IMG/VR virus record: IMGVR_UViG_2744054962_000001
Length of the DNA: 64,000 nt
From: a virus
Taxonomy: Duplodnaviria > Heunggongvirae > Uroviricota > Caudoviricetes
Strand: one strand, 5' to 3'
Of the stretch, positions 3,079 through 36,589 are shown piece after piece; the stretch's first letter is position 1; each line of letters begins with the position of its first letter. The notes under the pieces are model-generated. The model had not been told where the DNA came from and did not search any database. It worked only from the letters and a program-made list of their open reading frames with translations. The position numbers and the translations under genes are program-made.

Positions 3079-3831
3079 ATGCATTCGTTAGTATTTGCAT
3101 TTAAAAACATACTCAAGAATGTTATAAACATACTAGGGATGTTAAATATTTTTTTGTCTGTGAGGGTGAGGAGAAAAGATATAAAAGATAAATTAAAGGA
3201 ACTTAACAAAGAAAAAGAACAATTAAAAAGCGAAGAAATTATTATTGATTTATACAAGAAAAAACTCGCATCTAGCAAGGGGAAAGCTAATGATAAAATC
3301 AAAGGAAAAATAATTCACTATATTATTGCTAGAGAGTTGGGGAATGATCCTGATAATGAAGATTTGCGACATAATCTTTTTACAAAGATAAAAGAATCAG
3401 AAGAACAGGTTGAAGTTCTGGTTCATCAAAGAGAAGTAAGTGAGCAGGCGAACAAAAAAGAAACGGTTGTCAATTTGTTTTTATTGTATGAAAAAAATAA
3501 ATTGTTTAAAGCTAAGGGGTTGGCTGTGTTTCTTATAGTTATAAACTTAATTATAGTTGCGACTCTCGATCTTCCAGCTTGGTCATTGATTATAAGTTTT
3601 TTTATTCTCTCTTTGATTATGTTGAAAGATCAGATACTTACTATTCGTGTCTCTAAAGGATATTTTGGCACAAGTGCGTATGAAGCGGTTCAATTGCTTA
3701 AATTCATCAGAGAAAATTCAGACAAATTTGACTCAGATGATAATGACGGTAGCCCACGACGGATATTGAATCCGAAGGGAACAACAAAAAAATCAGACAA
3801 CCTATTCGATAAAGGGTGGCAAAATGTTTGA
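3079..3831 (+). CDS. Predicted multi-pass membrane protein in AT-rich island, unknown function
   Basis: ATG at 3079 preceded by GGAG; hydrophobic segments at N-terminus and mid-protein separated by lysine/glutamate-rich segment; local GC far below surroundings. Confidence 0.5.
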   Translation: MHSLVFAFKNILKNVINILGMLNIFLSVRVRRKDIKDKLKELNKEKEQLKSEEIIIDLYKKKLASSKGKANDKIKGKIIHYIIARELGNDPDNEDLRHNLFTKIKESEEQVEVLVHQREVSEQANKKETVVNLFLLYEKNKLFKAKGLAVFLIVINLIIVATLDLPAWSLIISFFILSLIMLKDQILTIRVSKGYFGTSAYEAVQLLKFIRENSDKFDSDDNDGSPRRILNPKGTTKKSDNLFDKGWQNV

Positions 3832-4246
3832 CCTTGACGCCATCACTAAGTTCTTAAATCAGTGTTTTGATCTACTTTTGCTCAAGCAGCCTTTAAGAAC
3901 TGTTTTCGGAATACTGATTGGTTTCATTATTTTTGTTTTTGTTTACACGTTTAGGTTTGCGATAGCTCAAGATTTTTATGAAATAGATGGTGTGCATTAC
4001 GCTGCATGTTTCGTCATCGGTGTTTTAGTTGTTCACACAAGAACATTTTTTGACGTTATCAAGGGCACCGCAGTTGATGAAGAAATAGATAGTATGATCA
4101 GAGTTATTACGAAGCAGCCACACCTATCTAACCATCAAAAAAACATAATGATTGCTGAAATACTTCAAAAAGAAATTGCAGCCATAAGTCAAAAGAGATT
4201 GGATAAAGTTGCACAAGAAATAACGGAGAAAAAGACAACTGATTAA
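3824..4246 (+). CDS. Predicted membrane protein, unknown function, co-transcribed with preceding gene
   Basis: Start overlaps upstream stop; two hydrophobic helices (ILIGFIIFVFVYTF, ACFVIGVLVV); AT-rich. Confidence 0.5.
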   Translation: MFDLDAITKFLNQCFDLLLLKQPLRTVFGILIGFIIFVFVYTFRFAIAQDFYEIDGVHYAACFVIGVLVVHTRTFFDVIKGTAVDEEIDSMIRVITKQPHLSNHQKNIMIAEILQKEIAAISQKRLDKVAQEITEKKTTD

Positions 4247-5210: not shown

Positions 5211-6551
5211 ATGACCGAACTTTGCCATACAGGACGCGGGCTGTCCGAAGAGTTTGATGAAGATTTCCAGAACAGACTGACGGCATATTTTTGTCGTGAT
5301 CACGAGTTTCTTACTCGTGCGGGAGATCTGGTTGTGCCTAGCCAATTTGCCAATGCGGCCAATGCCATATTGGTTAATATGGTTTCGGGCTATTACCGTA
5401 TGTACAAGAGCGCGCCCTCTTCATCTGCAATTCTGGATATGCTTAAGCGTGCGAAACGCGATAAGACTATCCGTGAGGAACTATTCGCCGATGTTGTTGC
5501 TGCGTTTAAGCGCATCCTTGCAGAAAAATTGTCCGATACCTCGTACATGGTTGACCAGGTATCAACCTTCGCAAAAAGCGTAGCGTTTGATGATGCTCTG
5601 ATTAAGGCTGCTGAACTGAAAGAGAAAGGCGACTTTCAGGGGGCGATGGCAATCATGGCCAAGGTTCAGCAGATTGGATCGAACGAAGCGACCGGAATCT
5701 ATGACTACTACACCTCCGCAAGTGAGCGATTGAAAGCGCGTGAATATGAGGCTTCAGAGGAGTATGTACCAAACAGTATTACAACTGGACTCCCTCTTCT
5801 CGATAGGTTGCTGTACCAAAAAGGCTGGGCAAAGCGCGAAATGGTGCTCTTCATGGGGTTCGCTAAATCCGGTAAATCGACCGCAATGGGTGAGTTTTCC
5901 ATAAACGCAACGCTTGCTGGCTACAATGTTCTGTATCTCTCGCTGGAGGTTCACACCACCATTTTATCCGACCGTTTTGATGCAAGATTGTCGGAGACGG
6001 AAATGTCCAAGCTGGTGGAACGGCGCGATGAGGTTCATCGTAAGTTGGCAGAGTTGGGAGCCACGAAGGGGATTGGTAGTTTGTGGGTTGTTGAGCGTCC
6101 GTCAGGAAGTATGTCACCGGCAGACCTGGATCGTATGCTTAACAGCATGAAAGCCAATGGCATGGTGCCTGACATGGTTGTTGTCGACTACGCAGATTTG
6201 ATGCGTGCCAGTTATGACCTTCGTGATGATCGCGCCAACATTCGTAGTATCTACACCGATTTACGTGCTCTTTATGACAAGCATAACGTTGCTGGTATCA
6301 CGGCGTCGCAAACAAACCGTGAAGGTGGCGCGTCAGAAGTTGCCACAATGATGCACGCTGCCGACAACATCGAAAAAGTACGTATTGCTGACCTGGTAAT
6401 AACGATCAACAAAACCGAAGAAGAAGAAGCGAAAGGAGAGGCTCGTCTCTACTTTGCTGGTTCGCGTAACCAGCAGGGAGGGATCAGCATTCGCGTTAAA
6501 CAAAACCTCGAACAAATGCGCTTCATTGAGCGAATCTTAGACGTTACCTAA
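5211..6551 (+). CDS. Replicative DNA helicase (DnaB-like / RecA-fold)
   Basis: Walker A GFAKSGKST, Walker B-like VVVDYADLM, 446 aa, immediately upstream of primase. Confidence 0.7.
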   Translation: MTELCHTGRGLSEEFDEDFQNRLTAYFCRDHEFLTRAGDLVVPSQFANAANAILVNMVSGYYRMYKSAPSSSAILDMLKRAKRDKTIREELFADVVAAFKRILAEKLSDTSYMVDQVSTFAKSVAFDDALIKAAELKEKGDFQGAMAIMAKVQQIGSNEATGIYDYYTSASERLKAREYEASEEYVPNSITTGLPLLDRLLYQKGWAKREMVLFMGFAKSGKSTAMGEFSINATLAGYNVLYLSLEVHTTILSDRFDARLSETEMSKLVERRDEVHRKLAELGATKGIGSLWVVERPSGSMSPADLDRMLNSMKANGMVPDMVVVDYADLMRASYDLRDDRANIRSIYTDLRALYDKHNVAGITASQTNREGGASEVATMMHAADNIEKVRIADLVITINKTEEEEAKGEARLYFAGSRNQQGGISIRVKQNLEQMRFIERILDVT

Positions 6552-6557
6552 AAAATA

Positions 6558-6580
6558 AGCGTGGAGAACACCTCCACGCT
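6558..6580. terminator. Hairpin after helicase gene
   Basis: AGCGTGGAG aacac CTCCACGCT inverted repeat. Confidence 0.4.
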
Positions 6581-6632
6581 TGATTCATTGGTGAAACAAC
6601 TTTTCTTTTGCCAAACCACAAAAGAAAAACAC

Positions 6633-7814
6633 ATGAGCCTTTATGTTATATCAACATTTAGGTTGGTCACAATATTGCCTGTTAAAAGTGGAATTATCGT
6701 GAGCGAGCTGAAAGAGCTAATTACCGAATTAGATTTTGAACAATGGTTGGATACTGAAGGTATCGTTTATCGACGTGGAGGCGTGAGTACTCGCGGTCGT
6801 GAAGTGAATATCAAGGAGTGTCCGGTATGCGGCAGCTCCAACTGGAAGGTATATTTCAATCTGACCAGTGGCGTCGGTAAATGCTTCGCTGGTGATCATC
6901 CCGAAGAGATTCAGTTCAATAAGCTGGTCTTCCTCAAGCACTACAGCGGTAAATCACGACGACAGTTCGAGGAATATGTGCAGAACGCTCTTCTTTCCCA
7001 GGGGTGGGCACCAAAGAAAGAAGAGATAGTGCTTGCAAGCACAGTCGAGTTAGAGGGACCAGTTGCACTCCCTCGTCATTACGATCTTCCTATAGATGGC
7101 CATCTTCCAGACTATCTGGTTGAACGAAATATATCGCCTGAAATGGCAAAGTATTTTGACCTACGATACTGCGTCGAAGGCAAGCACGCTTATGTAGATC
7201 CGTATACAGATCAGGTTAAAGGACAGATTTTCGATATGCGAATACTGATACCGGTTTACGATCTGGATGGGGTAATGAAGACATTTCAAGGACGAGACAT
7301 TACCGGTACAGCAGAACGCCGCTACCTCTTCCCTATGCAGCTGCCGGCGTCGGGTAAGTTTCTCTACAACGGCCACAACGCAGTCGGGAAACAAACAGTC
7401 GTTGTGTGTGAAGGGGCATTTGACGTAATGGGCGTGAAGCGAGCCATCTTCGACGAAAAGACGCTGAGGGATTATGTAGAGCCAATTGGCACGTTCGGGA
7501 TGCACTTGTCCGGAAATATGAATGAGGACGCTGAAGATCAGTTGGGCGCGTTCCTGACGCTCAAGGCGCGTGGATTACGCAACGTCATCATGATGTGGGA
7601 TAGCGAGAAGCAAGCGATCCGCAACACCATGTCGGCGGCCAAACGCCTCACCAGCATCGGACTAAATGTCAAAGTGGCCTGTCTGGGCGAAGAAGGTCTC
7701 GACCCCGGCGACGCGACGCCAGAGCAGATCCTCAAAGCCTATTATCGTGCCAAGCCTTACTCCAAACAGCTGGAGTTAAAATGCAAAGTGCTCGGTATCA
7801 AGTCACTCGTGTAG
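6633..7814 (+). CDS. DNA primase (DnaG-like zinc-binding domain plus TOPRIM)
   Basis: CPVCGSS...CFAGDH zinc-ribbon-like motif and TOPRIM-like VVVCEGAFDVMG; ATG at 6633 preceded by AAAAGAAAAACAC motif; ORF track start 6561 overlaps the upstream hairpin. Confidence 0.65.
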   Translation: MSLYVISTFRLVTILPVKSGIIVSELKELITELDFEQWLDTEGIVYRRGGVSTRGREVNIKECPVCGSSNWKVYFNLTSGVGKCFAGDHPEEIQFNKLVFLKHYSGKSRRQFEEYVQNALLSQGWAPKKEEIVLASTVELEGPVALPRHYDLPIDGHLPDYLVERNISPEMAKYFDLRYCVEGKHAYVDPYTDQVKGQIFDMRILIPVYDLDGVMKTFQGRDITGTAERRYLFPMQLPASGKFLYNGHNAVGKQTVVVCEGAFDVMGVKRAIFDEKTLRDYVEPIGTFGMHLSGNMNEDAEDQLGAFLTLKARGLRNVIMMWDSEKQAIRNTMSAAKRLTSIGLNVKVACLGEEGLDPGDATPEQILKAYYRAKPYSKQLELKCKVLGIKSLV

Positions 7815-28109: not shown

Positions 28110-28125
28110 TCCCATTACGTGACCA

Positions 28126-28155
28126 GTAAGGCGTCTACGGACGCCTTACTTTTTG
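28126..28155 (+). terminator. Intrinsic terminator (GGCGTC family)
   Basis: GTAAGGCGTC tacg GACGCCTTAC followed by TTTTT. Confidence 0.55.
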
Positions 28156-28169
28156 GAAGGAATGTACCG

Positions 28170-29114
28170 GTGAATTATCTCTTCGTAGATGGCAATAGCC
28201 TGGGTTATTACCACCAACAATCTGACAAATTGCACAACGGCGAAATGGAAGTACAGGCTGCTTTCGGCTTTGTTAAGAACGTCCGTCGTTATGCCTCCAT
28301 CCTCCATGCCCGACCTATGATTCTTTGGGATGGATTTAGTGACAAGCGTCGCGACTTTTACCCGGACTACAAAGCAAATCGCGACGACGATCCTGATATG
28401 AAAAAGATGAAGGAAGGCTTTGCTATCCAGAAGCCATACATCCTCAAAATGATGACCGCGCTTGGAGTTACCCAACTCATTGCAAAAGATGCAGAAGCGG
28501 ATGATCTGGCCGGGCTGCTGGTATCCCGCATGGCACCGCAGCCAACCGTTGAACACATCTATCTGTTAACAGGCGATAGCGACTGGCTTCAGTTAGTTCG
28601 TGAAAACGTAAGCTGGGTAAGCCTGCGTGAAGACGCCAAAAACAAGCAGGTTAATTTTGAGCAATTTGCGGAGCTGACAGGATTCGCCACGCCTCGCGCA
28701 TTTTTGGAAGCAAAAGCATTACAAGGCGATAACTCGGACAACATTAGCGGTGTTGGTGGCATTGGTGCTGGCGGTGCGAAAGAGCTGCTGCATGAATGGG
28801 GAAGTGTCGCAACGATGGTACGCGGCATCAACGACGGCTCAATCGTGGTTAATAAAGGGCGTCATAAGACCGCCTTCAACAAACTAGCGAAGAATGCCTT
28901 CAACGAGAAAACAGGCTGTCGAATGCTCGAAGCGTTCAAGAGAAACATCACGCTAATGAACCTGATTGAGACGAAGTTTCCGCCTACCGAAATCGAAACA
29001 ATCAAAGGCAATCGTGACGTGAAAGCATTCGAGCAACTGTGCTACGAGCTGAATTTCCGTTCGTTCCTTGAAGACCTTGAAGTGTTTGTTCTTCCATTCG
29101 AAAGGTATTGCTAA
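28170..29114 (+). CDS. 5-prime to 3-prime exonuclease / flap endonuclease
   Basis: N-terminal NYLFVDGNSLGYY, EADDLAG acidic cluster, H3TH motif GDNSDNISGVGGIGAGGAKELL; GTG start at 28170 downstream of the terminator. Confidence 0.7.
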   Translation: MNYLFVDGNSLGYYHQQSDKLHNGEMEVQAAFGFVKNVRRYASILHARPMILWDGFSDKRRDFYPDYKANRDDDPDMKKMKEGFAIQKPYILKMMTALGVTQLIAKDAEADDLAGLLVSRMAPQPTVEHIYLLTGDSDWLQLVRENVSWVSLREDAKNKQVNFEQFAELTGFATPRAFLEAKALQGDNSDNISGVGGIGAGGAKELLHEWGSVATMVRGINDGSIVVNKGRHKTAFNKLAKNAFNEKTGCRMLEAFKRNITLMNLIETKFPPTEIETIKGNRDVKAFEQLCYELNFRSFLEDLEVFVLPFERYC

Positions 29115-29382: not shown

Positions 29383-31722
29383 ATGGCAAAAGGAAAATCC
29401 GCACTGGCACTTGCTCTGAAAAAGAAAATCGGTAGCAACGACGAAATTCAGAAAGTAACTCATTGGATTGATACAGGCTTTCCACCGTTAAACAAAGCTA
29501 TTTCTGGTCGTTACGATGGCGGCTTCCCATGTGGTCGTATCGTCGAAGTATTCGGTCCTCCAAGCGCGGGGAAATGTGTTACCGCAGACACCATGCTGCT
29601 GACGGAGCGTGGAATGGTAACAGTGAAAGAGTTGTTTGAGATTGAAGGGTACAAAGCGACATGCACTACTCGCGATGTAGAGCATAACGTTGGACTCATC
29701 AATGAAAATGGCGTGATAGAGAAGACCTCACACCTGACATGGAACAACCGTCGCAAATTCAAGCGTATTAAGCTGGCATCAGGCGGTTATATCGAGGCTA
29801 CGTTCCGTCACCCAATCCGTGTGGTTGACGACTTAGGTAATGTCGTCTGGCGACATGCTGAAAAAATCAGTGTAGGCGACACGATTCCTTCAATGGTTGG
29901 CACACATCAATTCGGCGATCAGCACCTGGATGCCAATATCGCAAAACTGATGGGCTATTTAATTGCTGACGGATACGTGGCCTCTGAAAATTCAGTGAAT
30001 TTTTCTAACACAGATCCTTTCATCAAGGATGAGTACTACCGCCTCATTTCGCTGGTATCAGACAAGATGCCAGTTACGAGAAAACATAACGGCTCGGAAG
30101 ACCATGTGCTGTTTAGCAAAGAGGTGCGTTCGCTGCTTTTTAAAGAATATGGTCTGGAGTATGAGAAAGCTGCTGGCAAGCAGGTTCCGTTGAGTGTGCG
30201 TCGCGCCAATAGCGAGGCTCAAATTGCATTCCTTCGCGGCTACTTTGAGCTGGAATGCCACGTCAATGATGGTCGCTGCATTGAGGTTGTGAGCGCGAGT
30301 GGGCTGCTGCTACAGCAAATTCGCCTCATGCTCCTGAATCTGGGGATTACGTCAACTATCTCTGAAAAACACGTCGCGGGTTATGAAAATACATATTACC
30401 GGCTGTCATTCAGTGGCTCTAATTACGACCTTTTTCTGTCAACGATTGGTTTCGAATCTCCGGCACGTTTATCAGTGGCAACCAAACGGGACATTGGTTT
30501 TGACCGCACTTACTCAGGCTATGTTCCGCACATCAGCGGCTTAGTGAAATCACTCTACGAGTCGCTCACCAAGACCACCCGTGAAGACTACGCTCTGGTA
30601 GACCACGTTATTGGCCGCGGCGATCGTGTCGGAATAGACAAACTGCGAGAAATCTATGTCTCCTTCATTGGCAGAAAGAATCGTTTTAACGAGCATCTGT
30701 TTGCACAACTGGCAGCGGTAATTGGCTCTAACTTGTTCTACGACGAAGTCGTGGCTATTGAGGAAGGTGAAGCACCAACGTTCGACGTAGCGATGCCGGA
30801 AACACACTCTTTCTGGTCTAACGGGATTATCAGCCACAACACATTCCTTGCAACAGCAGCGATGATCTCCGCTCAAAAACAAGATGGTCTGGCGGTATTC
30901 CTCGATCATGAAAACAGTTTTGACGTTGGCCTGGCTGTAGCCAATGGCCTGAACGCAGATGAGGATGACGGTCAGTGGGTATACAAGCAGCCTGATACCT
31001 TCGAAGACTCTGTAGAGTTGATCGGCACAATACTTAAATTGGTACGTGATGAAGAGCTTATCCCCGAATCAGCACCTATCTGTATCGTGGCTGACTCTCT
31101 TGCGTCTATGGTTCCGAACTCCAAAGCCGAGAAGTTCGAAAAGATGGCTGAAGGCACTGCCAAAGACAAAGATCAGCTAAACATGAACGACAATACGGCA
31201 CTGGCTCGTGCGACGAGTGCGAACTTCCCTACTCTGGCTTTGTGGGCACGCAAATACAACGCCTGCATCATCTTCTTGAATCAGGTTCGCACAAAAATCG
31301 GTGTAATGTTTGGCGACCCTACTACGTCGCCAGGTGGAGATTCACCGAAGTTCTACGCATCTGTACGTATCCGTCTTGGTGCATCGGTGATGAAGGATGG
31401 TAAAGAGAAGATCGGTCAGGACGTAGGCGCAGAATGCATCAAAAACAAAGTTGCACCACCGTATGGCAAATGCACCTGGAAATTCTACTTCGATCCTACT
31501 CGTGGCCTCGACGTTATCGAGTCGCTCGTCGAGTACATGCTGGAAGAAGGATACCTGCCAAAGAACGCCAGCGGTCGAGTAGAAATTGGTGACAAGAAAT
31601 ACACCAAATCACAGATCGTCGAGATGTATCGGGAGAAGCCACTGGCTGAAATCATTGCGGCTTTGCAGGCAATCGACGACCGAAGAGCAAAAGACAACCC
31701 CACCGAGTCAGTAGAAGAGTAA
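29383..31722 (+). CDS. RecA/UvsX-like recombinase interrupted by an intein
   Basis: P-loop GPPSAGK split from TFLATAAMISAQ by 422 aa; extein about 357 aa. Confidence 0.75.
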   Translation: MAKGKSALALALKKKIGSNDEIQKVTHWIDTGFPPLNKAISGRYDGGFPCGRIVEVFGPPSAGKCVTADTMLLTERGMVTVKELFEIEGYKATCTTRDVEHNVGLINENGVIEKTSHLTWNNRRKFKRIKLASGGYIEATFRHPIRVVDDLGNVVWRHAEKISVGDTIPSMVGTHQFGDQHLDANIAKLMGYLIADGYVASENSVNFSNTDPFIKDEYYRLISLVSDKMPVTRKHNGSEDHVLFSKEVRSLLFKEYGLEYEKAAGKQVPLSVRRANSEAQIAFLRGYFELECHVNDGRCIEVVSASGLLLQQIRLMLLNLGITSTISEKHVAGYENTYYRLSFSGSNYDLFLSTIGFESPARLSVATKRDIGFDRTYSGYVPHISGLVKSLYESLTKTTREDYALVDHVIGRGDRVGIDKLREIYVSFIGRKNRFNEHLFAQLAAVIGSNLFYDEVVAIEEGEAPTFDVAMPETHSFWSNGIISHNTFLATAAMISAQKQDGLAVFLDHENSFDVGLAVANGLNADEDDGQWVYKQPDTFEDSVELIGTILKLVRDEELIPESAPICIVADSLASMVPNSKAEKFEKMAEGTAKDKDQLNMNDNTALARATSANFPTLALWARKYNACIIFLNQVRTKIGVMFGDPTTSPGGDSPKFYASVRIRLGASVMKDGKEKIGQDVGAECIKNKVAPPYGKCTWKFYFDPTRGLDVIESLVEYMLEEGYLPKNASGRVEIGDKKYTKSQIVEMYREKPLAEIIAALQAIDDRRAKDNPTESVEE
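29575..30840 (+). mobile_element. Intein with LAGLIDADG homing endonuclease domain inserted in the RecA P-loop
   Basis: Begins with Cys after GPPSAGK, ends SHN followed by Thr; LAGLIDADG-like blocks LMGYLIADGYV and FLRGYFELECHV. Confidence 0.7.
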
Positions 31723-31726
31723 ACAC

Positions 31727-31752
31727 AAGGCGTCCACAGGACGCCTTTTTTA
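31727..31752 (+). terminator. Intrinsic terminator (GGCGTCC family)
   Basis: GGCGTCC aca GGACGCC followed by TTTTTT. Confidence 0.6.
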
Positions 31753-31814
31753 TCTCTTGAAAATATATAAGTGCTTACTTATTATTTTCACATAACAACC
31801 ACATAGGAAAACAC

Positions 31815-32015
31815 ATGATCAAAATCTATCTATTGGCAGTAGCCACAGGCCTTTCAGTGGCTCTCATCTACGGTTTACTGGTTCCGTCGCTGATTTCTAC
31901 CAAGAGTGATTTAGCCGTCATGTTTGGAGTTATCGTTGGTTTTGGTGCTCCTGTAATCGGTCTTATTGCTGGTCGTAAGTTTATCAACTCATTAATCAAA
32001 GCAAAGGGGAAATAA
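31815..32015 (+). CDS. Small two-helix membrane protein
   Basis: 66 aa, two hydrophobic helices; directly upstream of SPFH lipoprotein. Confidence 0.45.
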   Translation: MIKIYLLAVATGLSVALIYGLLVPSLISTKSDLAVMFGVIVGFGAPVIGLIAGRKFINSLIKAKGK

Positions 32016-32018
32016 GTA

Positions 32019-32849
32019 ATGAAGAAAGGTTTACTTGCAGTTGCTCTGGCGGCTATTTGCACAATGGGTCTTACTGGCTGCGATCGCGTGGAGCCTGGAT
32101 ACGTTGGCATCAAAGTAAACAAATTAGGTGAAGACAAAGGGATTGGTGAAGTGGTTGGCGTTGGTCGCCAATGGACAGGTCTTAACACCGAACTTTACGT
32201 ATTCCCGACCTTCAAACAAATGAAGACCTACGACGAGCCGTTCACATTCCAGATGAGTGACGGTACTGCTATTGGTCACAAAATTGGCGTTGCGTATCTG
32301 GTTAATCGTGACAAGGTAACGACGGTGTTCCAGACCTATCGCAAAGGCGTAGACGATATCACCGAATCAGATCTGCGTCAGAAAATTGCCGACTCTCTAA
32401 ACCGTTTGGCCAGCCGTATGACCACTGACTCATTTATCGACGGTGGTAAGGCACAATTGCTGGACAACGCACTGAAAGATATTCAGAAAGAGATGTCTCC
32501 GGTTGGTATTGAGGTACTGAGCCTGTCATGGGTTGGAAAGCCTGATTACCCAAAAACTGTCATTGAATCTATTAACGCCAAAGTAACGGCTAACCAGCGT
32601 ACTCTGCAACGTCAGCAGGAAGTTGAACAACGTAAAGCTGAGGCGAATATGCTACGTGAACAGGCTAATGGTGAAGCTGATGCTATCCGTGCTCGTGCGC
32701 AAGCAGAAGCAGACGCCATTCGTCTGCGCGGTGAAGCTCTGCGTCAAAACCCGAACGTTATGGAACTGGAAGCCATCAATAAATGGAATGGCCAGTTACC
32801 GCAGTACATGACTCAAGGGGCTAACACTCCTTTCATTACAGTGAAATAA
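32019..32849 (+). CDS. SPFH/band-7 domain lipoprotein
   Basis: Signal peptide with lipobox LTGC; coiled-coil Ala/Glu/Arg-rich C-terminal region typical of SPFH proteins. Confidence 0.6.
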   Translation: MKKGLLAVALAAICTMGLTGCDRVEPGYVGIKVNKLGEDKGIGEVVGVGRQWTGLNTELYVFPTFKQMKTYDEPFTFQMSDGTAIGHKIGVAYLVNRDKVTTVFQTYRKGVDDITESDLRQKIADSLNRLASRMTTDSFIDGGKAQLLDNALKDIQKEMSPVGIEVLSLSWVGKPDYPKTVIESINAKVTANQRTLQRQQEVEQRKAEANMLREQANGEADAIRARAQAEADAIRLRGEALRQNPNVMELEAINKWNGQLPQYMTQGANTPFITVK

Positions 32850-32865
32850 CTCCCCTAAAAAGTTC

Positions 32866-32890
32866 AGGCGTCCAGTTGGACGCCTTTTTT
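32866..32890 (+). terminator. Intrinsic terminator (GGCGTCC family)
   Basis: AGGCGTCC agtt GGACGCCT followed by TTTTTT. Confidence 0.6.
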
Positions 32891-32940
32891 ATCGCAATTA
32901 TCTTATTAAGAAAACAATTTGTTTAAAAGGATAAGAAAAC

Positions 32941-33366
32941 ATGACAGCTATTAAGAAACTCTACGATGCCGCAAACGTGGCTCTGGATGTTATTGATGAT
33001 GAAGTAGCAAAAGGCTTTCCTGAACCTGATTGGGCGCATCAGCTACGAAACGCTATCGCAGAAATGACCCCACCAGATCCAACCCCCGACGAGACAGACT
33101 GGCAGCGATTCATCCGTATGTACGCTCAGGAAATAGGTCCAACGCCAACGGCAGAGCAGGCAATGCTGCTGAAATACTTCAAAGAGGCGGGAGAGGATTT
33201 ACCAATTGATGACTCAGCATATTGGTTCCACTGCGCATGGCGTAAGTATGACGTGATATTCACACAAGGCATGGGAAGCAAAGATATGGTTGTGTGGCAT
33301 CTACTCCATATAGACACAGCCGTTGACAGAGTTATTGAACAGTTTTTCCCTAAACAAGAAGATTGA
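32941..33366 (+). CDS. Hypothetical protein
   Basis: 141-aa ORF preceded by AAACAATTTGTTT motif and AGGA-containing RBS. Confidence 0.45.
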   Translation: MTAIKKLYDAANVALDVIDDEVAKGFPEPDWAHQLRNAIAEMTPPDPTPDETDWQRFIRMYAQEIGPTPTAEQAMLLKYFKEAGEDLPIDDSAYWFHCAWRKYDVIFTQGMGSKDMVVWHLLHIDTAVDRVIEQFFPKQED

Positions 33367-34465: not shown

Positions 34466-34949
34466 CCAACCACTGCGGTGAGTAGCCAGCTCACCGCATT
34501 CGTATCAGCTCATTATCCACCGTGGTCTGCAGTCCTCTCTTCCTACATATCTGCTAACCACTGTAGCGAGTAGACAGCCTTTCATTCGCATCAAACAACC
34601 ACTATGGTGAGTATTGGAGTGAGATGTCCAGCTGGTATCCACTATGGTGAGTAAGCCTTTGCTGTTTTCAGTGGATATCCACTCGCCACAGTGGATACGC
34701 TCAAAGATGAGGGCGACAACAACCACTATAGACAGTGAATTTTCCAAGATACCCAGTGACCACTAACCTCGCAGCCCTTGTTTCATCAGTGTTAGTGATC
34801 ACTAACATTTAATTCAGTATTTGCATTCTACTGCCTACAGTGGTTATCAACAGATAACGATACTCACTATAGTGGATAGCGAATTACAGATATAAGTAAG
34901 GCTCACTACAGTGGATAGTGAGCCTTACTACTAACTACAGTGGTTGGGC
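34466..34949. repeat. Iteron array downstream of rep gene
   Basis: At least 10 copies of a motif around CCACTATGGTGAGT / CACTATAGTGGATAG in both orientations. Confidence 0.6.
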
Positions 34950-36004
34950 TATTTGCGAGTCTTTGCCTTGCGCAACTCTTCGAGAAGCGCCAGTTCTTCT
35001 TTACTCAACATGACCATTTTGCCTTCTTTTTCGTCAGGCACAACGTCGATAATGTCATCTTGATTCTCATCTGGGAGGCTATATTCCGTCTCATCATTAT
35101 CGATTTTTGTTGATATTTGTGCCTGGCGTAACTTTGGCCGCCTATAGTGGATGATGAAGTAGACCGAGTTTCCGCGCTTAACTTCCGTGTAATCGAGATA
35201 TCCTATCTCTCGCAGCTGTTCCATAGCCTTTCTTACCGTCGCATTCTGAGTAATAGTGCGACTTGTCAGATTAAGTCTGGCGCGTAAACGAGCTAGTGAT
35301 ATTGGTGCCGGATCAGGCGGCAAACTTTCAATAAAAGTATAAAGCGCCTGAGCGGATTCTTTTCTTGAGAGTTCGTTTATAGCCCGGAGTTGCAGAAGAA
35401 CCTTTTTGTCGAACTGGTAGAGTTCGAAAATCTTGGGATCTGCTTTCAGTTCGACCGTATCGTGCTTGACACTATATTTTGCCGTTTGCACAAGATGCGT
35501 TACGTAAAACTCATCAGAGCCTTTGCTACGGAACGAGATGGTATTTGTGGCAATACGGCTTAGCGAACTGTCCAGGCGTTTGCGTAACTTCGCTGATGAC
35601 CTGGCGGTCGGAATGCCACACAGCCTTACAAACTCAACGAACGGCAACGTGACAGTATCGCCAACGACCTTGTGTTTGGCAAACGCGTGGATTATTCCCA
35701 CCCACGTTTTAAAGTCGTTATCCATATCAAGCCGAAGGCCAGAGATCCTTATGTCTTCGTACCCTTCGGCTTTTGCCAGAGACAGCTGTTTGAGTTCAGC
35801 AGAGGCATCCATAGAGACCATTTGCCCCTTTCTTCCTCTGGATGTCGATTTCAGCGTCGGAACGAAGAGGCCCAGACGCATCAAAGCAACAGGCTGAACA
35901 GTGTTATTAGTGTTAGGAACCAACGTAACAACTTCGCCTGTCTTTTTATCTGTTTCTGAAAATGCTTCAACGATCGCTATGTTTTTATTGCCGTTTTCGC
36001 TCAT
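34949..36004 (-). CDS. repA: Plasmid replication initiator (RepA-like, iteron-binding)
   Basis: 351-aa minus-strand gene flanked on both sides by iteron arrays; protein motifs themselves not diagnostic without a search. Confidence 0.6.
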
Positions 36005-36047
36005 TCCAAATGTCTCTTGTTATTCGACGGCTTTGGTGGCCTTTGCT

Positions 36048-36172
36048 GATTACAGTGGATAGTAGCACTCATCACAGCGGTTATCCTACCGTCTATAGTG
36101 GTTTTTCTCCTCTCTATAGTGGTTGCTTTGCTCCCTATAGTGGATTATTCGCTCTCTATAGTGGATATCGAT
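36048..36172. repeat. Iteron array (origin-proximal, upstream of rep)
   Basis: Copies of CTCTATAGTGG(A/T)T at about 21-22 bp spacing (36091, 36112, 36133, 36155). Confidence 0.6.
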
Positions 36173-36278
36173 CATGTCTGAAGGCAGATGGCGCAACGGT
36201 TTGAGGTGGGCGGGGATCTTATTGGGTCTTTATGGGTCTCTTTGGTTCTCTTTGTGATCTGAATTACTGGATCGGGCC

Positions 36279-36287
36279 TGTGGATAA
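36279..36287. promoter_or_regulatory. DnaA box (TTATCCACA on minus strand)
   Basis: TGTGGATAA perfect match to reverse complement of DnaA-box consensus; second near-match at 36325-36333. Confidence 0.5.
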
Positions 36288-36439
36288 AATCAGAGGATTT
36301 CAAGAACAGGTAACTCTACTCTTCTGTGGATATTTAAGGACATAAGAATCATGACTAAGAGTAGAGTTTAAAATATATCTATGTATATCAGTATGTTAAT
36401 GAAGAATTAAGTCATTAAGTTATCCATAAAAGACAATGT

Positions 36440-36556
36440 GCTCTACTCTCTACAGTGGATATATACAGCTCTCCAGAGTGGTTGTTTTACTCTTCATAGC
36501 GGTTATTCAGCTCTCTACAGAGGTTTCTTTGCTCTCCATAGTGGATGGCAACACCC
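36440..36556. repeat. Second iteron array
   Basis: Five copies of CTCTACAGTGGATA-like motif at about 21 bp spacing after an AT-rich stretch (36340-36430). Confidence 0.55.
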
Positions 36557-36589
36557 TTTCAGACCAGTAACCGCAACGGCTAGAGGCGA

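Follow-up and report, generated by a model that had tools for sequence, protein, structure and literature searches.

A conserved transmembrane-hairpin partner of phage SPFH lipoproteins

The gene pair described here lies in a window of 64,000 nucleotides (the whole stretch of DNA that was analysed) from a tailed-phage record, IMGVR_UViG_2744054962_000001, an SSU5-like phage-plasmid. The pair encodes a 66-residue membrane hairpin followed by a 276-residue SPFH/Band 7 lipoprotein. The two occur together in hundreds of unrelated phages. Judged from its linkage, fusions and co-divergence, the hairpin accompanies the SPFH protein across phyla as an obligate partner that co-evolves with it and is in some cases fused to it, and this partnership is new here. 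The SPFH family is large and already catalogued; the addition is a hairpin partner with a defined topology and motif. A preliminary description of the region had placed the two genes exactly (31815-32015 and 32019-32849 on the + strand, 3 bp apart) and missed the hairpin as a conserved, obligate SPFH partner across phyla.

The hairpin protein and its linkage to the SPFH gene

The small two-helix membrane protein of the preliminary description proved to be the product of a real gene. It matches PHROG 1130 ('membrane protein', category 'moron, auxiliary metabolic gene and host takeover') over residues 1-65 with an E-value of 2.1e-25, and no Pfam family at E <= 0.01. Two hydrophobic segments are present, and the AlphaFold model (predicted local distance difference test score, pLDDT, of 86) consists of a helix at 2-27, a turn at 28-31 and a second helix at 32-65. 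Across the family, the turn region carries the motif P-x-[LM]-[IV]-S-[AS]-x-[SDN]-[TD]-x-x-V-x-x-G. Among 110 unique sequences aligned on a hidden Markov model (HMM), conservation at the motif positions is 100% for P, 98% for L/M, 89% for I/V, 97% for S, 77% for V and 97% for G, percentages that are partly circular since the members were selected with the HMM. P24 and S28 are near-invariant in alignments A1 and A6. The tails hold on average 4.8 Lys and Arg residues versus 0.39 in the turn (n = 112), a pattern to which 99% of the sequences conform. By the positive-inside rule, this distribution predicts that both ends of the hairpin are cytoplasmic and that the turn is periplasmic. The hairpin would then sit in the inner membrane with its conserved turn exposed at the periplasmic surface. 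As far as sequence conservation can tell, the 66-residue protein is a conserved family and not a chance hydrophobic open reading frame (ORF).

The DNA 5' of the SPFH gene was scanned in 14 diverse phage loci in addition to P88. A two-transmembrane (two-TM) ORF of 49-83 amino acids (aa) was found directly 5' of the SPFH gene in the window, P88, KpCHEMY26, phiP27, Vibrio CKB-S1, Desulfovibrio ProddE, Burkholderia vB_SR1, Lak-B5, crAss cr106_1 and Stenotrophomonas Paxi, and one gene away from it in 4MG. The hairpin and SPFH genes overlap by 4-17 nucleotides (nt) in seven of eleven phage pairs. The hairpin ORFs of distant phages align with a shared turn motif. When an HMM made from five enterobacterial phage hairpins was run against 742 six-frame ORFs from 11 distant phage loci, the top seven were SPFH-adjacent ORFs, with E-values of 2e-11 (ProddE), 4e-10 (phiM6), 7e-8 (CKB-S1), 1e-5 (Paxi) and 6e-4 (Lak) and weaker values for the two others. 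Hairpin genes unannotated in public records include those at 3816-4004 of the phiP27 locus (L088), 2355-2504 of the vB_SR1 locus (L091) and 2298-2483 of the crAss cr106_1 locus (L093).

The linkage recurs in two larger sets of loci, which were searched with the hairpin HMM at E < 0.01. Patterns drawn from the SPFH part only retrieved 80 diverse viral contigs from IMG/VR, and 77 of these have exactly one hairpin match, every one on the SPFH strand: 72 lie directly upstream of the SPFH gene or overlap it, 3 lie directly downstream and 2 slightly further upstream. No other match occurred among the 6,347 ORFs of the 80 contigs. Contigs L102, L103 and L106 have the hairpin gene directly downstream. 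In genomes of bacterial and archaeal species, one hairpin match was found at 56 of 80 loci, again always on the SPFH strand (52 adjacent, 2 fused in one ORF and 2 split from the SPFH gene by an IS1 insertion), with no other match among 18,940 ORFs. Several of the loci without a hit still hold a divergent two-TM ORF with a P-x-L-x-S-like turn. In chromosomal prophages of Shigella flexneri and E. coli (L183 and L184, ~5230-6000), ~770 bp is inserted between the two genes, with ORFs that we take to be IS1 InsA-like; the insert alters the C-terminus of the hairpin protein and probably uncouples the pair.

Natural fusions link the two proteins more directly. The hairpin module is joined in frame to the N-terminal side of the SPFH protein in 14 of the 150 best 50%-identity SPFH representatives (E < 1e-3), and weakly in 3 more. 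Each fused representative keeps a signal peptide and lipobox between the hairpin module and the SPFH domain. These forms fit the predicted topology, as a hairpin with cytoplasmic ends followed by a signal-anchor would put the SPFH domain outside the cytoplasm. Should signal peptidase II still act at the retained lipobox, a fusion would yield the same two products in a 1:1 ratio. A metagenomic protein of 344 aa (P0199) has the reverse order, with the hairpin module after the SPFH domain (HMM E-value 3.5e-10, residues 287-338). One apparent fusion of 347 aa (P0053) was left unused: it differs from an ATGA overlap by a single base in an A-run (A6 versus A7), and its two sources may be one isolate. 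The 14 fused representatives came from an exhaustive search and are independent of P0053. Word-indexed homology searching, started from the small protein by itself or from its profile, returned close relatives only, with no names and no fusions.

The two proteins have also diverged together. Pairwise distances of 112 distinct pairs gave a Mantel r of 0.77, as compared to a maximum of 0.12 in 999 permutations. Clustering of all neighbouring ORFs in 73 loci produced only antisense shadow ORFs, with neither a recurrent third neighbour nor an informative one. Combined, the linkage, the fusions, the co-divergence and the lack of a recurrent third gene indicate that the two genes are inherited and exchanged as a unit.

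The SPFH lipoprotein and the setting of the pair

The second gene encodes, as the preliminary description had proposed, an SPFH-domain lipoprotein with a coiled-coil region. Residues 23-209 match Pfam Band_7/SPFH (PF01145; E 2.6e-30) with 106.2 bits where the cut-off is 23.6, residues 208-266 weakly match Flotillin (PF15975) and residues 1-275 match PHROG 200 'lipoprotein' (E 3e-108). In the AlphaFold model (pLDDT 78.5), a beta-sheet with helices spans 20-176. One continuous helix (179-243) and a second, shorter one (245-255) follow, and the tail is of low confidence; these last two helices account for the coiled-coil region. By analogy with solved SPFH cages, the long helix may have a role in oligomerisation. 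The tail is disordered in the monomer model (pLDDT <50 for 263-276), and its motif is conserved, with K, W, G and P invariant in alignment A5 and W, G and P invariant or nearly so in A3. Foldseek against the PDB gave top matches to prohibitin (8rrh), HflK and HflC (7vhq) and erlin (9vvj), followed further down by stomatin, flotillin and QmcA-YbbJ (8z5g), all at probability 1.0, and by major vault protein; identities are 12-19%. The closest curated sequence models in NCBIfam are HflC and HflK, both below cut-off. Profile matches and predicted fold together place the 276-aa protein among SPFH proteins of the HflK/C-prohibitin-erlin type, and it carries a lipoprotein signal.

The N-terminus reads MKKGLLAVALAAICTMGLTG ahead of the cysteine of the lipobox L-T-G-C. 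The layout MKK-GLLAVALAAICTMG-LTGC agrees with a basic n-region, a hydrophobic h-region and the lipobox pattern [LVI][ASTVI][GAS]C. Every A5 sequence has the lipobox Cys, its conservation in A3 is 90% or more, and a lipobox-like motif is present in 112 of 150 SPFH family representatives. Asp at position +2 is an inner-membrane retention (Lol avoidance) signal in E. coli, and it is found in the members from the window, P88, KpCHEMY26, phiP27, Burkholderia vB_SR1 and phiM6. Sorting rules vary among bacteria, and an inner-membrane location is predicted here for the window element and not for the family in general.

The SPFH family is broadly distributed. A tblastn search of 50,697 phage records matched 413, of which 405 were near full length, and an exhaustive profile-free search of 1.84 billion representatives gave 195 clusters below 1e-30 and 902 below 1e-10. 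For the pair, identity is 25-45% between enterobacterial phages and those of the crAss and Lak groups. Temperate carriers include the P2-like P88, phiP27 and Stx2a-converting phages. Virulent carriers range from N4-like/G7C-like phages, Vequintavirinae (PVP-SE1, 4MG) and Felix-O1-like Erwinia phages to Bruynoghevirus TL, phiCbK, a T7-like Desulfovibrio phage, crAss-like phages and Lak megaphages; among virulent phages that infect soil, water and plant bacteria, the family is frequent. Phage records name the gene 'lipoprotein', 'band 7' or 'SPFH' and, wrongly, 'transposase' or 'serine protease'. No functional study of the phage family was found in the literature, only genome notes that speculate on lysogeny or adsorption; a lysogeny role was suggested by analogy with HflC (PMC10269572; PMC8540360). 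A 2026 phage genome paper states that why the phage has an SPFH gene 'remains unclear' (PMC13239085), and the role of most bacterial SPFH proteins is likewise described as unclear (PMC12005517).

In P88 the pair (67 aa and 276 aa) lies in the early operon between cox and replication gene A, and in phiP27 in the leftward region upstream of xis and int. In virulent phages, its neighbours include DNA polymerase (CKB-S1, ProddE, phiEa104 and the Bacillus phage), dUTPase (KpCHEMY26) and exonuclease with nucleotide-metabolism genes (4MG). The pair is in the structural module in none of the phage loci inspected, and a lysis-type gene is nearby in only 1 of the 16 examined, crAss cr106_1, where the next annotated gene encodes a peptidoglycan hydrolase. 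Given this wide occurrence in strictly virulent phages among early/middle DNA-metabolism genes, the pair is likely to serve a function that phages use themselves, rather than being an element-borne defence or a purely lysogenic-conversion gene. In Dyella and other Rhodanobacteraceae (L192-L219, e.g. L196 at 5800-6850), the pair also occurs on the chromosome, in a syntenic position. SPFH identity is 92-95% among the closest of these loci, and flanking genes recur in 17-18 of 21. The Dyella copy has BlaI/BlaR1-like genes on one side and hemerythrin and nrdAB on the other, neighbours that are not informative on function. Rather than being part of a prophage, the Rhodanobacteraceae copy has the look of a cellular version, either domesticated or ancestral.

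Positions 31700-32900 of the window share 98.9% identity with Escherichia phage CMS-2020a and 95% with phages PhiR41_1 and Cyrano; each of these three relatives is ~108 kb. The corresponding stretch of Cyrano is annotated as UvsY, gp32-like single-stranded DNA-binding protein, exonuclease, RecA, 'membrane protein', 'Stomatin-like integral membrane protein', four hypothetical genes, Cra and RepA, and in the window the pair likewise sits between recombination and replication genes (Table 1). The unit is present in 283 of 5,426 complete E. coli genomes, in 198 places on plasmids and 101 on chromosomes, and is annotated there as 'SPFH domain-containing protein' and 'hypothetical protein'. A backbone gene of the same plasmid type occupies 221 plasmid places versus the 198 of the pair, which suggests that the pair is a near-core gene of the SSU5-like lineage.

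The preliminary description treated the two genes as an operon, and the conservation of a promoter-like site and of flanking terminator hairpins in SSU5-like relatives supports this. Both hairpins and the promoter-like site are retained in 9 such relatives, including Kluyvera and Yersinia pestis contigs. Across them, the -35 hexamer is unchanged and the -10 hexamer is TATTAT, TATCAT or TATAAT. Promoter-like sites in the region occur at chance level (3 found versus 3.3 expected in a scan), and the assignment is therefore based on conservation and not on the scan. The upstream terminator stem shows compensatory changes among relatives (e.g. GGCGCCC...GGGCGCC in L182); the downstream hairpin is also kept, with a nearly invariant stem, and its conservation adds less than that of the upstream one. 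The hairpin gene ends in a TAA at 32013-32015 and the SPFH gene starts with the ATG at 32019. The 3' end of the hairpin gene contains the Shine-Dalgarno sequence of the SPFH gene, which suggests that the two genes are translationally coupled. As read from these conserved signals, the pair is an insulated two-gene unit (terminator, promoter, two genes, terminator) in the SSU5-like lineage, and host RNA polymerase could transcribe it in the plasmid-prophage state.

Several further features surround the unit. An intein that includes a LAGLIDADG homing-endonuclease domain interrupts the upstream RecA/UvsX-like gene (Pfam RecA, Intein_splicing and LAGLIDADG_3), and the gene product matches PHROG 9666 over its full length. 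A metagenomic protein (P0050) joins the first ~226 SPFH residues to the C-terminal part of DUF7238, the product of the gene directly downstream, and looks like a deletion or assembly artefact. Iteron-like direct repeats of ~20 nt (core CTCTCTATAGTGGAT) flank repA in arrays at 34659-35157 and 36046-36567, presumably the plasmid-prophage origin.

Table 1 Features of the gene pair and its surroundings, in window positions
Feature	Position	Strand	Basis or remark
5'-3' exonuclease gene	28119-29114		upstream of pair
RecA/UvsX-like recombinase gene, 779 aa, intein-interrupted	29383-31722	+	upstream of pair
Terminator-like hairpin ending RecA/UvsX-like gene	31727-31747	+	9-bp stem, 6 GC pairs, T-run
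Sigma-70-type promoter-like site TTGAAA-17 nt-TATTAT	31757-31785	+	10/12 consensus matches
Shine-Dalgarno-like AGGAAA before hairpin gene	31805-31810	+	from sequence
66-aa hairpin protein gene	31815-32015	+	PHROG 1130 family
Codons of conserved turn and TM2 start, P24-S-L-I-S28-T-K-S-D...V35...G38	31884-31928	+	
Shine-Dalgarno AAGGGG for SPFH gene, within hairpin gene's end	32004-32009	+	from sequence
276-aa SPFH/Band 7 lipoprotein gene	32019-32849	+	PHROG 200
Predicted lipoprotein signal peptide (1-20), lipobox L18-T-G-C21, Asp22 at +2	32019-32084	+	from sequence
SPFH (Band 7) domain, residues 23-209	32085-32645	+	Pfam PF01145, AlphaFold, Foldseek
Long helix 179-243 and helix 245-255 (wall-forming coiled-coil segment of SPFH cages)	32553-32783	+	AlphaFold
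C-terminal tail start K255-W-N-G-Q-L-P261	32781-32801	+	family motif KW[ND]GxLP
Terminator-like hairpin closing unit	32866-32885	+	8-bp stem, 6 GC pairs, T-run
DUF7238 / PHROG 1451 gene	32941-33366	+	directly 3' of SPFH gene
Rep3-type repA	34949-36004	-	downstream of pair

A proposed two-subunit membrane module and its alternatives

We place about even weight on a model in which the hairpin and the lipoprotein are the subunits of one self-contained membrane module of the phage, HflK/C-like and on the periplasmic face of the inner membrane. Of its parts, a physical complex between the two proteins is probable, and assembly into a ring or cage can be proposed with moderate confidence. The lipoprotein would stay on the outer leaflet of the inner membrane, retained there by virtue of its Asp at +2, with the SPFH body in the periplasm on the same side as HflK/C. 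The SPFH protein has all the elements of a cage (SPFH body, ~65-residue helix, second helix and conserved tail) and no TM segment of its own. The hairpin could be the transmembrane element, which HflK/C and stomatin carry in-chain and which the NfeD protein YbbJ supplies for QmcA; this is the simplest reading, because the lipoprotein lacks a TM segment and its partner is little beyond a TM hairpin. Made in similar amounts, hairpin and lipoprotein would assemble into a ring or dome that fences an inner-membrane patch. The solved SPFH proteins (HflK/C, prohibitin, erlin, stomatin, flotillin and QmcA) are all builders of membrane rings or cages (PMC12624060).

The activity of such a module would follow that of the phage genome. 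In the plasmid prophage it would be driven by the sigma-70-like promoter of the unit, and in virulent phages the pair sits alongside early/middle DNA-metabolism genes. Conservation of the pair from phages of Proteobacteria to crAss and Lak phages suggests that its target would be a universal inner-membrane feature. FtsH is the leading candidate, as HflK/C and prohibitin partner FtsH-type proteases and FtsH, universal in bacteria, fits the breadth of the family; argued from analogy, it is a doubtful one all the same. By the same analogy, FtsH might be either caged or kept from phage proteins. The next candidate would be a generic stabilisation of the energised membrane until lysis.

Several observations weigh against this model. 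The structure models cover monomers only, and the gene neighbourhoods of the 73 loci give no pointer to FtsH. The protein falls far short of the HflK/HflC equivalog cut-offs, and there is a single SPFH gene instead of a K/C pair. S, T or G occupies position +2 in many relatives and E is found there too, and the membrane could differ between lineages. PM0222 of Pasteurella multocida, if it is a relative, was found in outer-membrane vesicles, which misfits strict inner-membrane retention (PMC9872710). A hairpin homologue was not detected in TL (L085), phiCbK (L086), phiEa104 (L087) or Bacillus phage Atlee (L096), and a clade of Bacteroidota/Cytophagales metagenome-assembled genomes (L239, L242-L244, L247-L251), with SPFH proteins at 30-33% identity, also lacks the hairpin gene.

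TL gp11 and Atlee gp141 are small proteins with one TM segment, and phiCbK gp181 has three such segments; in phiEa104 no TM protein lies upstream of the SPFH gene, and the Bacillus SPFH protein has a TM anchor in place of the lipobox. Most loci of the Bacteroidota clade have an upstream ORF of ~100 aa with an N-terminal hydrophobic segment and the conserved end ...PFYLQIRNLRI, which may be a different SPFH partner.

An unlikely extension of the two-subunit model is that the pair is a universal host-takeover device of phages, a periplasmic cage that captures or excludes one conserved host machine. Candidate machines are FtsH and MotAB-like envelope-spanning motors, including Zorya-type defence motors. 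Were this so, a phage-encoded SPFH cage would for the first time have a defined target, and it would represent a new class of counter-defence or proteostasis control acting at the membrane.

Among functions of a different kind, superinfection exclusion fares best, at a fairly low probability. The pair, early or constitutive in the plasmid prophage, would block the entry of other phages' genomes at the inner membrane or periplasm, as Imm and Sp of T4 do. Its own predicted promoter in the plasmid prophage and its place in early regions of virulent phages are in line with this, and the combination of a small two-TM protein with a periplasmic membrane-anchored protein resembles Imm and Sp of T4. 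In phage SH19, the SPFH gene adjoins a gene annotated 'superinfection exclusion protein'. However, known exclusion proteins are narrow and fast-evolving, while the breadth of the pair argues for a universal target, and neither Pfam nor PHROGs gave an exclusion-family match.

We hold it unlikely that the cage acts independently of FtsH as a general membrane stabiliser or anti-defence factor, keeping the inner membrane intact and energised while infection proceeds or shielding it from abortive-infection effectors or envelope-spanning defence. The broad conservation of the pair and its lack of a specific neighbour speak for such a factor. SPFH proteins are tied to membrane stress, and B. subtilis YdjI links PspA to the membrane via small membrane partners (PMC8581546). 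An E. coli prophage contig (L097) has a Tad2-like (PF11195) gene at 5729-6304, ~700 bp downstream of its SPFH gene, a single case and a weak hint of anti-defence. Against this, no known anti-defence family matched either protein.

A lysogenic-conversion or virulence lipoprotein acting on the animal host is highly improbable. The precedent is PM0222, an HflK/C-like protein of ~300 aa from a lambda-like prophage; it is reported to be expressed in the lysogen, to be present in outer-membrane vesicles and to act as a TLR1/2 agonist, and its deletion attenuates virulence (PMC9872710). Its primer-derived ends (MMIKGVV... and ...QLPQK) resemble those of family members, and PM0222 may be one; the 21-nt start sequence from the cloning primer had no exact match in IMG/VR. 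The unit in the window does have its own predicted promoter. Nonetheless, stimulation of TLR1/2 is common to all triacylated lipoproteins, an animal-directed role is senseless for virulent phages that infect soil, water and plant bacteria, among which the family is common, and the conserved hairpin partner is left unexplained.

The preliminary description proposed that the pair may modify the host envelope, and noted that some SPFH proteins occur in phage-defence contexts. The envelope part is reasonable if vague; the defence part points in the wrong direction, as no PADLOC-DB v2 model matches either protein (0 families, E <= 0.1) and hundreds of virulent phages carry the family inside replication modules. 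A two-gene membrane cassette with its own predicted promoter on a mobile element, whose small protein falls in the 'moron' category of PHROGs, might at first sight suggest an abortive-infection system carried by the element. Neither protein has an enzymatic or sensor domain, though, and the chromosomal copy of Dyella lies among housekeeping genes and not in a defence island, and we grant this explanation only a very small probability.

A role in lysis, spanin-like or as a regulator of holin timing, is given equally little weight. An inner-membrane protein with a long-helix lipoprotein recalls the i-spanin/o-spanin layout, and the peptidoglycan hydrolase gene of crAss cr106_1 could be taken in its favour. 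Yet the pair is outside lysis cassettes in all 16 phage loci, lies between recombination and replication genes in the window and has an SPFH fold unlike any spanin, and the Asp at +2 of the window protein argues against outer-membrane targeting. A virion or morphogenesis component, the counter-possibility raised in the preliminary description, is effectively refuted: in a Vi01-like phage preparation, the SPFH lipoprotein gave 3 peptide retrievals, a trace compared with hundreds for structural proteins, no structural PHROG or Pfam match was found, the pair always lies outside structural modules, and a lipoprotein signal is unexpected for tailed-phage virion proteins.

Whatever its target, the phage SPFH gene is better viewed as one half of a conserved, co-inherited and sometimes fused two-gene unit than as a lone gene. 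This matters for ~400 sequenced phages and ~5% of complete E. coli genomes, where a vague 'SPFH lipoprotein' annotation can now give way to a testable two-subunit model. With ~340 residues in total, the pair would be a tractable system for how an SPFH cage is anchored and what it encloses. P24, S28 and G38 of the hairpin and C21, D22 and the KWNGxLP tail of the lipoprotein are targets for mutation. Database entries can also be corrected, by adding the unannotated partner genes and removing the misnomers 'transposase' and 'serine protease'.

Comparison with known systems

HflK/HflC share with the phage protein the SPFH fold followed by a long helix, an N-terminal membrane anchor and a periplasmic body (the last inferred for the phage protein). 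They are its best curated sequence matches and among its top structural matches, at an identity of only 16-19%. The phage protein was rejected as an HflK or HflC itself, since the equivalog models fail (HflC TIGR01932, 30.2 bits versus 134.4; HflK TIGR01933, 18.7 bits versus 159.4). In addition, HflK and HflC are a paralogous pair, each TM-anchored, whereas the phage unit has one SPFH gene, a predicted lipid anchor and a separate 66-aa hairpin.

The SPFH-NfeD operons (QmcA-YbbJ, YqiK-YqiJ and YuaG-YuaF) offer the nearest parallel in gene organisation, an SPFH gene paired and co-transcribed with a gene for a small membrane protein. Prokaryotic SPFH genes usually come with the membrane partner gene NfeD, an operon rule (PMC2636767). 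The cage complex of QmcA-YbbJ includes the partner (PDB 8z5g). Despite this likeness, the phage unit is not an SPFH-NfeD pair: NfeD partners have an OB-fold domain, which the phage partner lacks (no Pfam match, a length of 66 aa that is too short, and a two-helix model). QmcA and YqiK also face the cytoplasm, whereas the phage SPFH protein is predicted to be exported.

Prohibitin and erlin cages, the closest structural matches, likewise face the non-cytoplasmic side of their membranes (the mitochondrial inner membrane and the endoplasmic reticulum, respectively). They differ in being eukaryotic, hetero-oligomeric and TM-anchored, with no hairpin partner. FliL is described as an SPFH-like protein, anchored in the membrane and periplasmic, whose rings surround an inner-membrane machine, the flagellar stators (PMC8794807). 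Compared with the phage protein, FliL has a TM anchor, no long helix or tail and a flagellar gene context, and it is absent from the top 50 structural matches.

Outside the SPFH proteins, two early gene products of T4 invite comparison: Imm is a small inner-membrane protein with two TM segments, and Sp is periplasmic and membrane-anchored. They show no sequence or domain similarity to the pair in Pfam or PHROGs, are not adjacent partners and have a narrow distribution. The catalogued members of PHROG 200 and PHROG 1130 (P88 gp12/gp11, phiP27 L05, PVP-SE1 gp118, phiCbK gp180 and the KpCHEMY26 'SPFH serine protease'), several of them with the hairpin gene unannotated, belong to the same two families at 26-79% identity; they have the same gene order, with the genes close together or overlapping, and do not differ in kind from the pair in the window.

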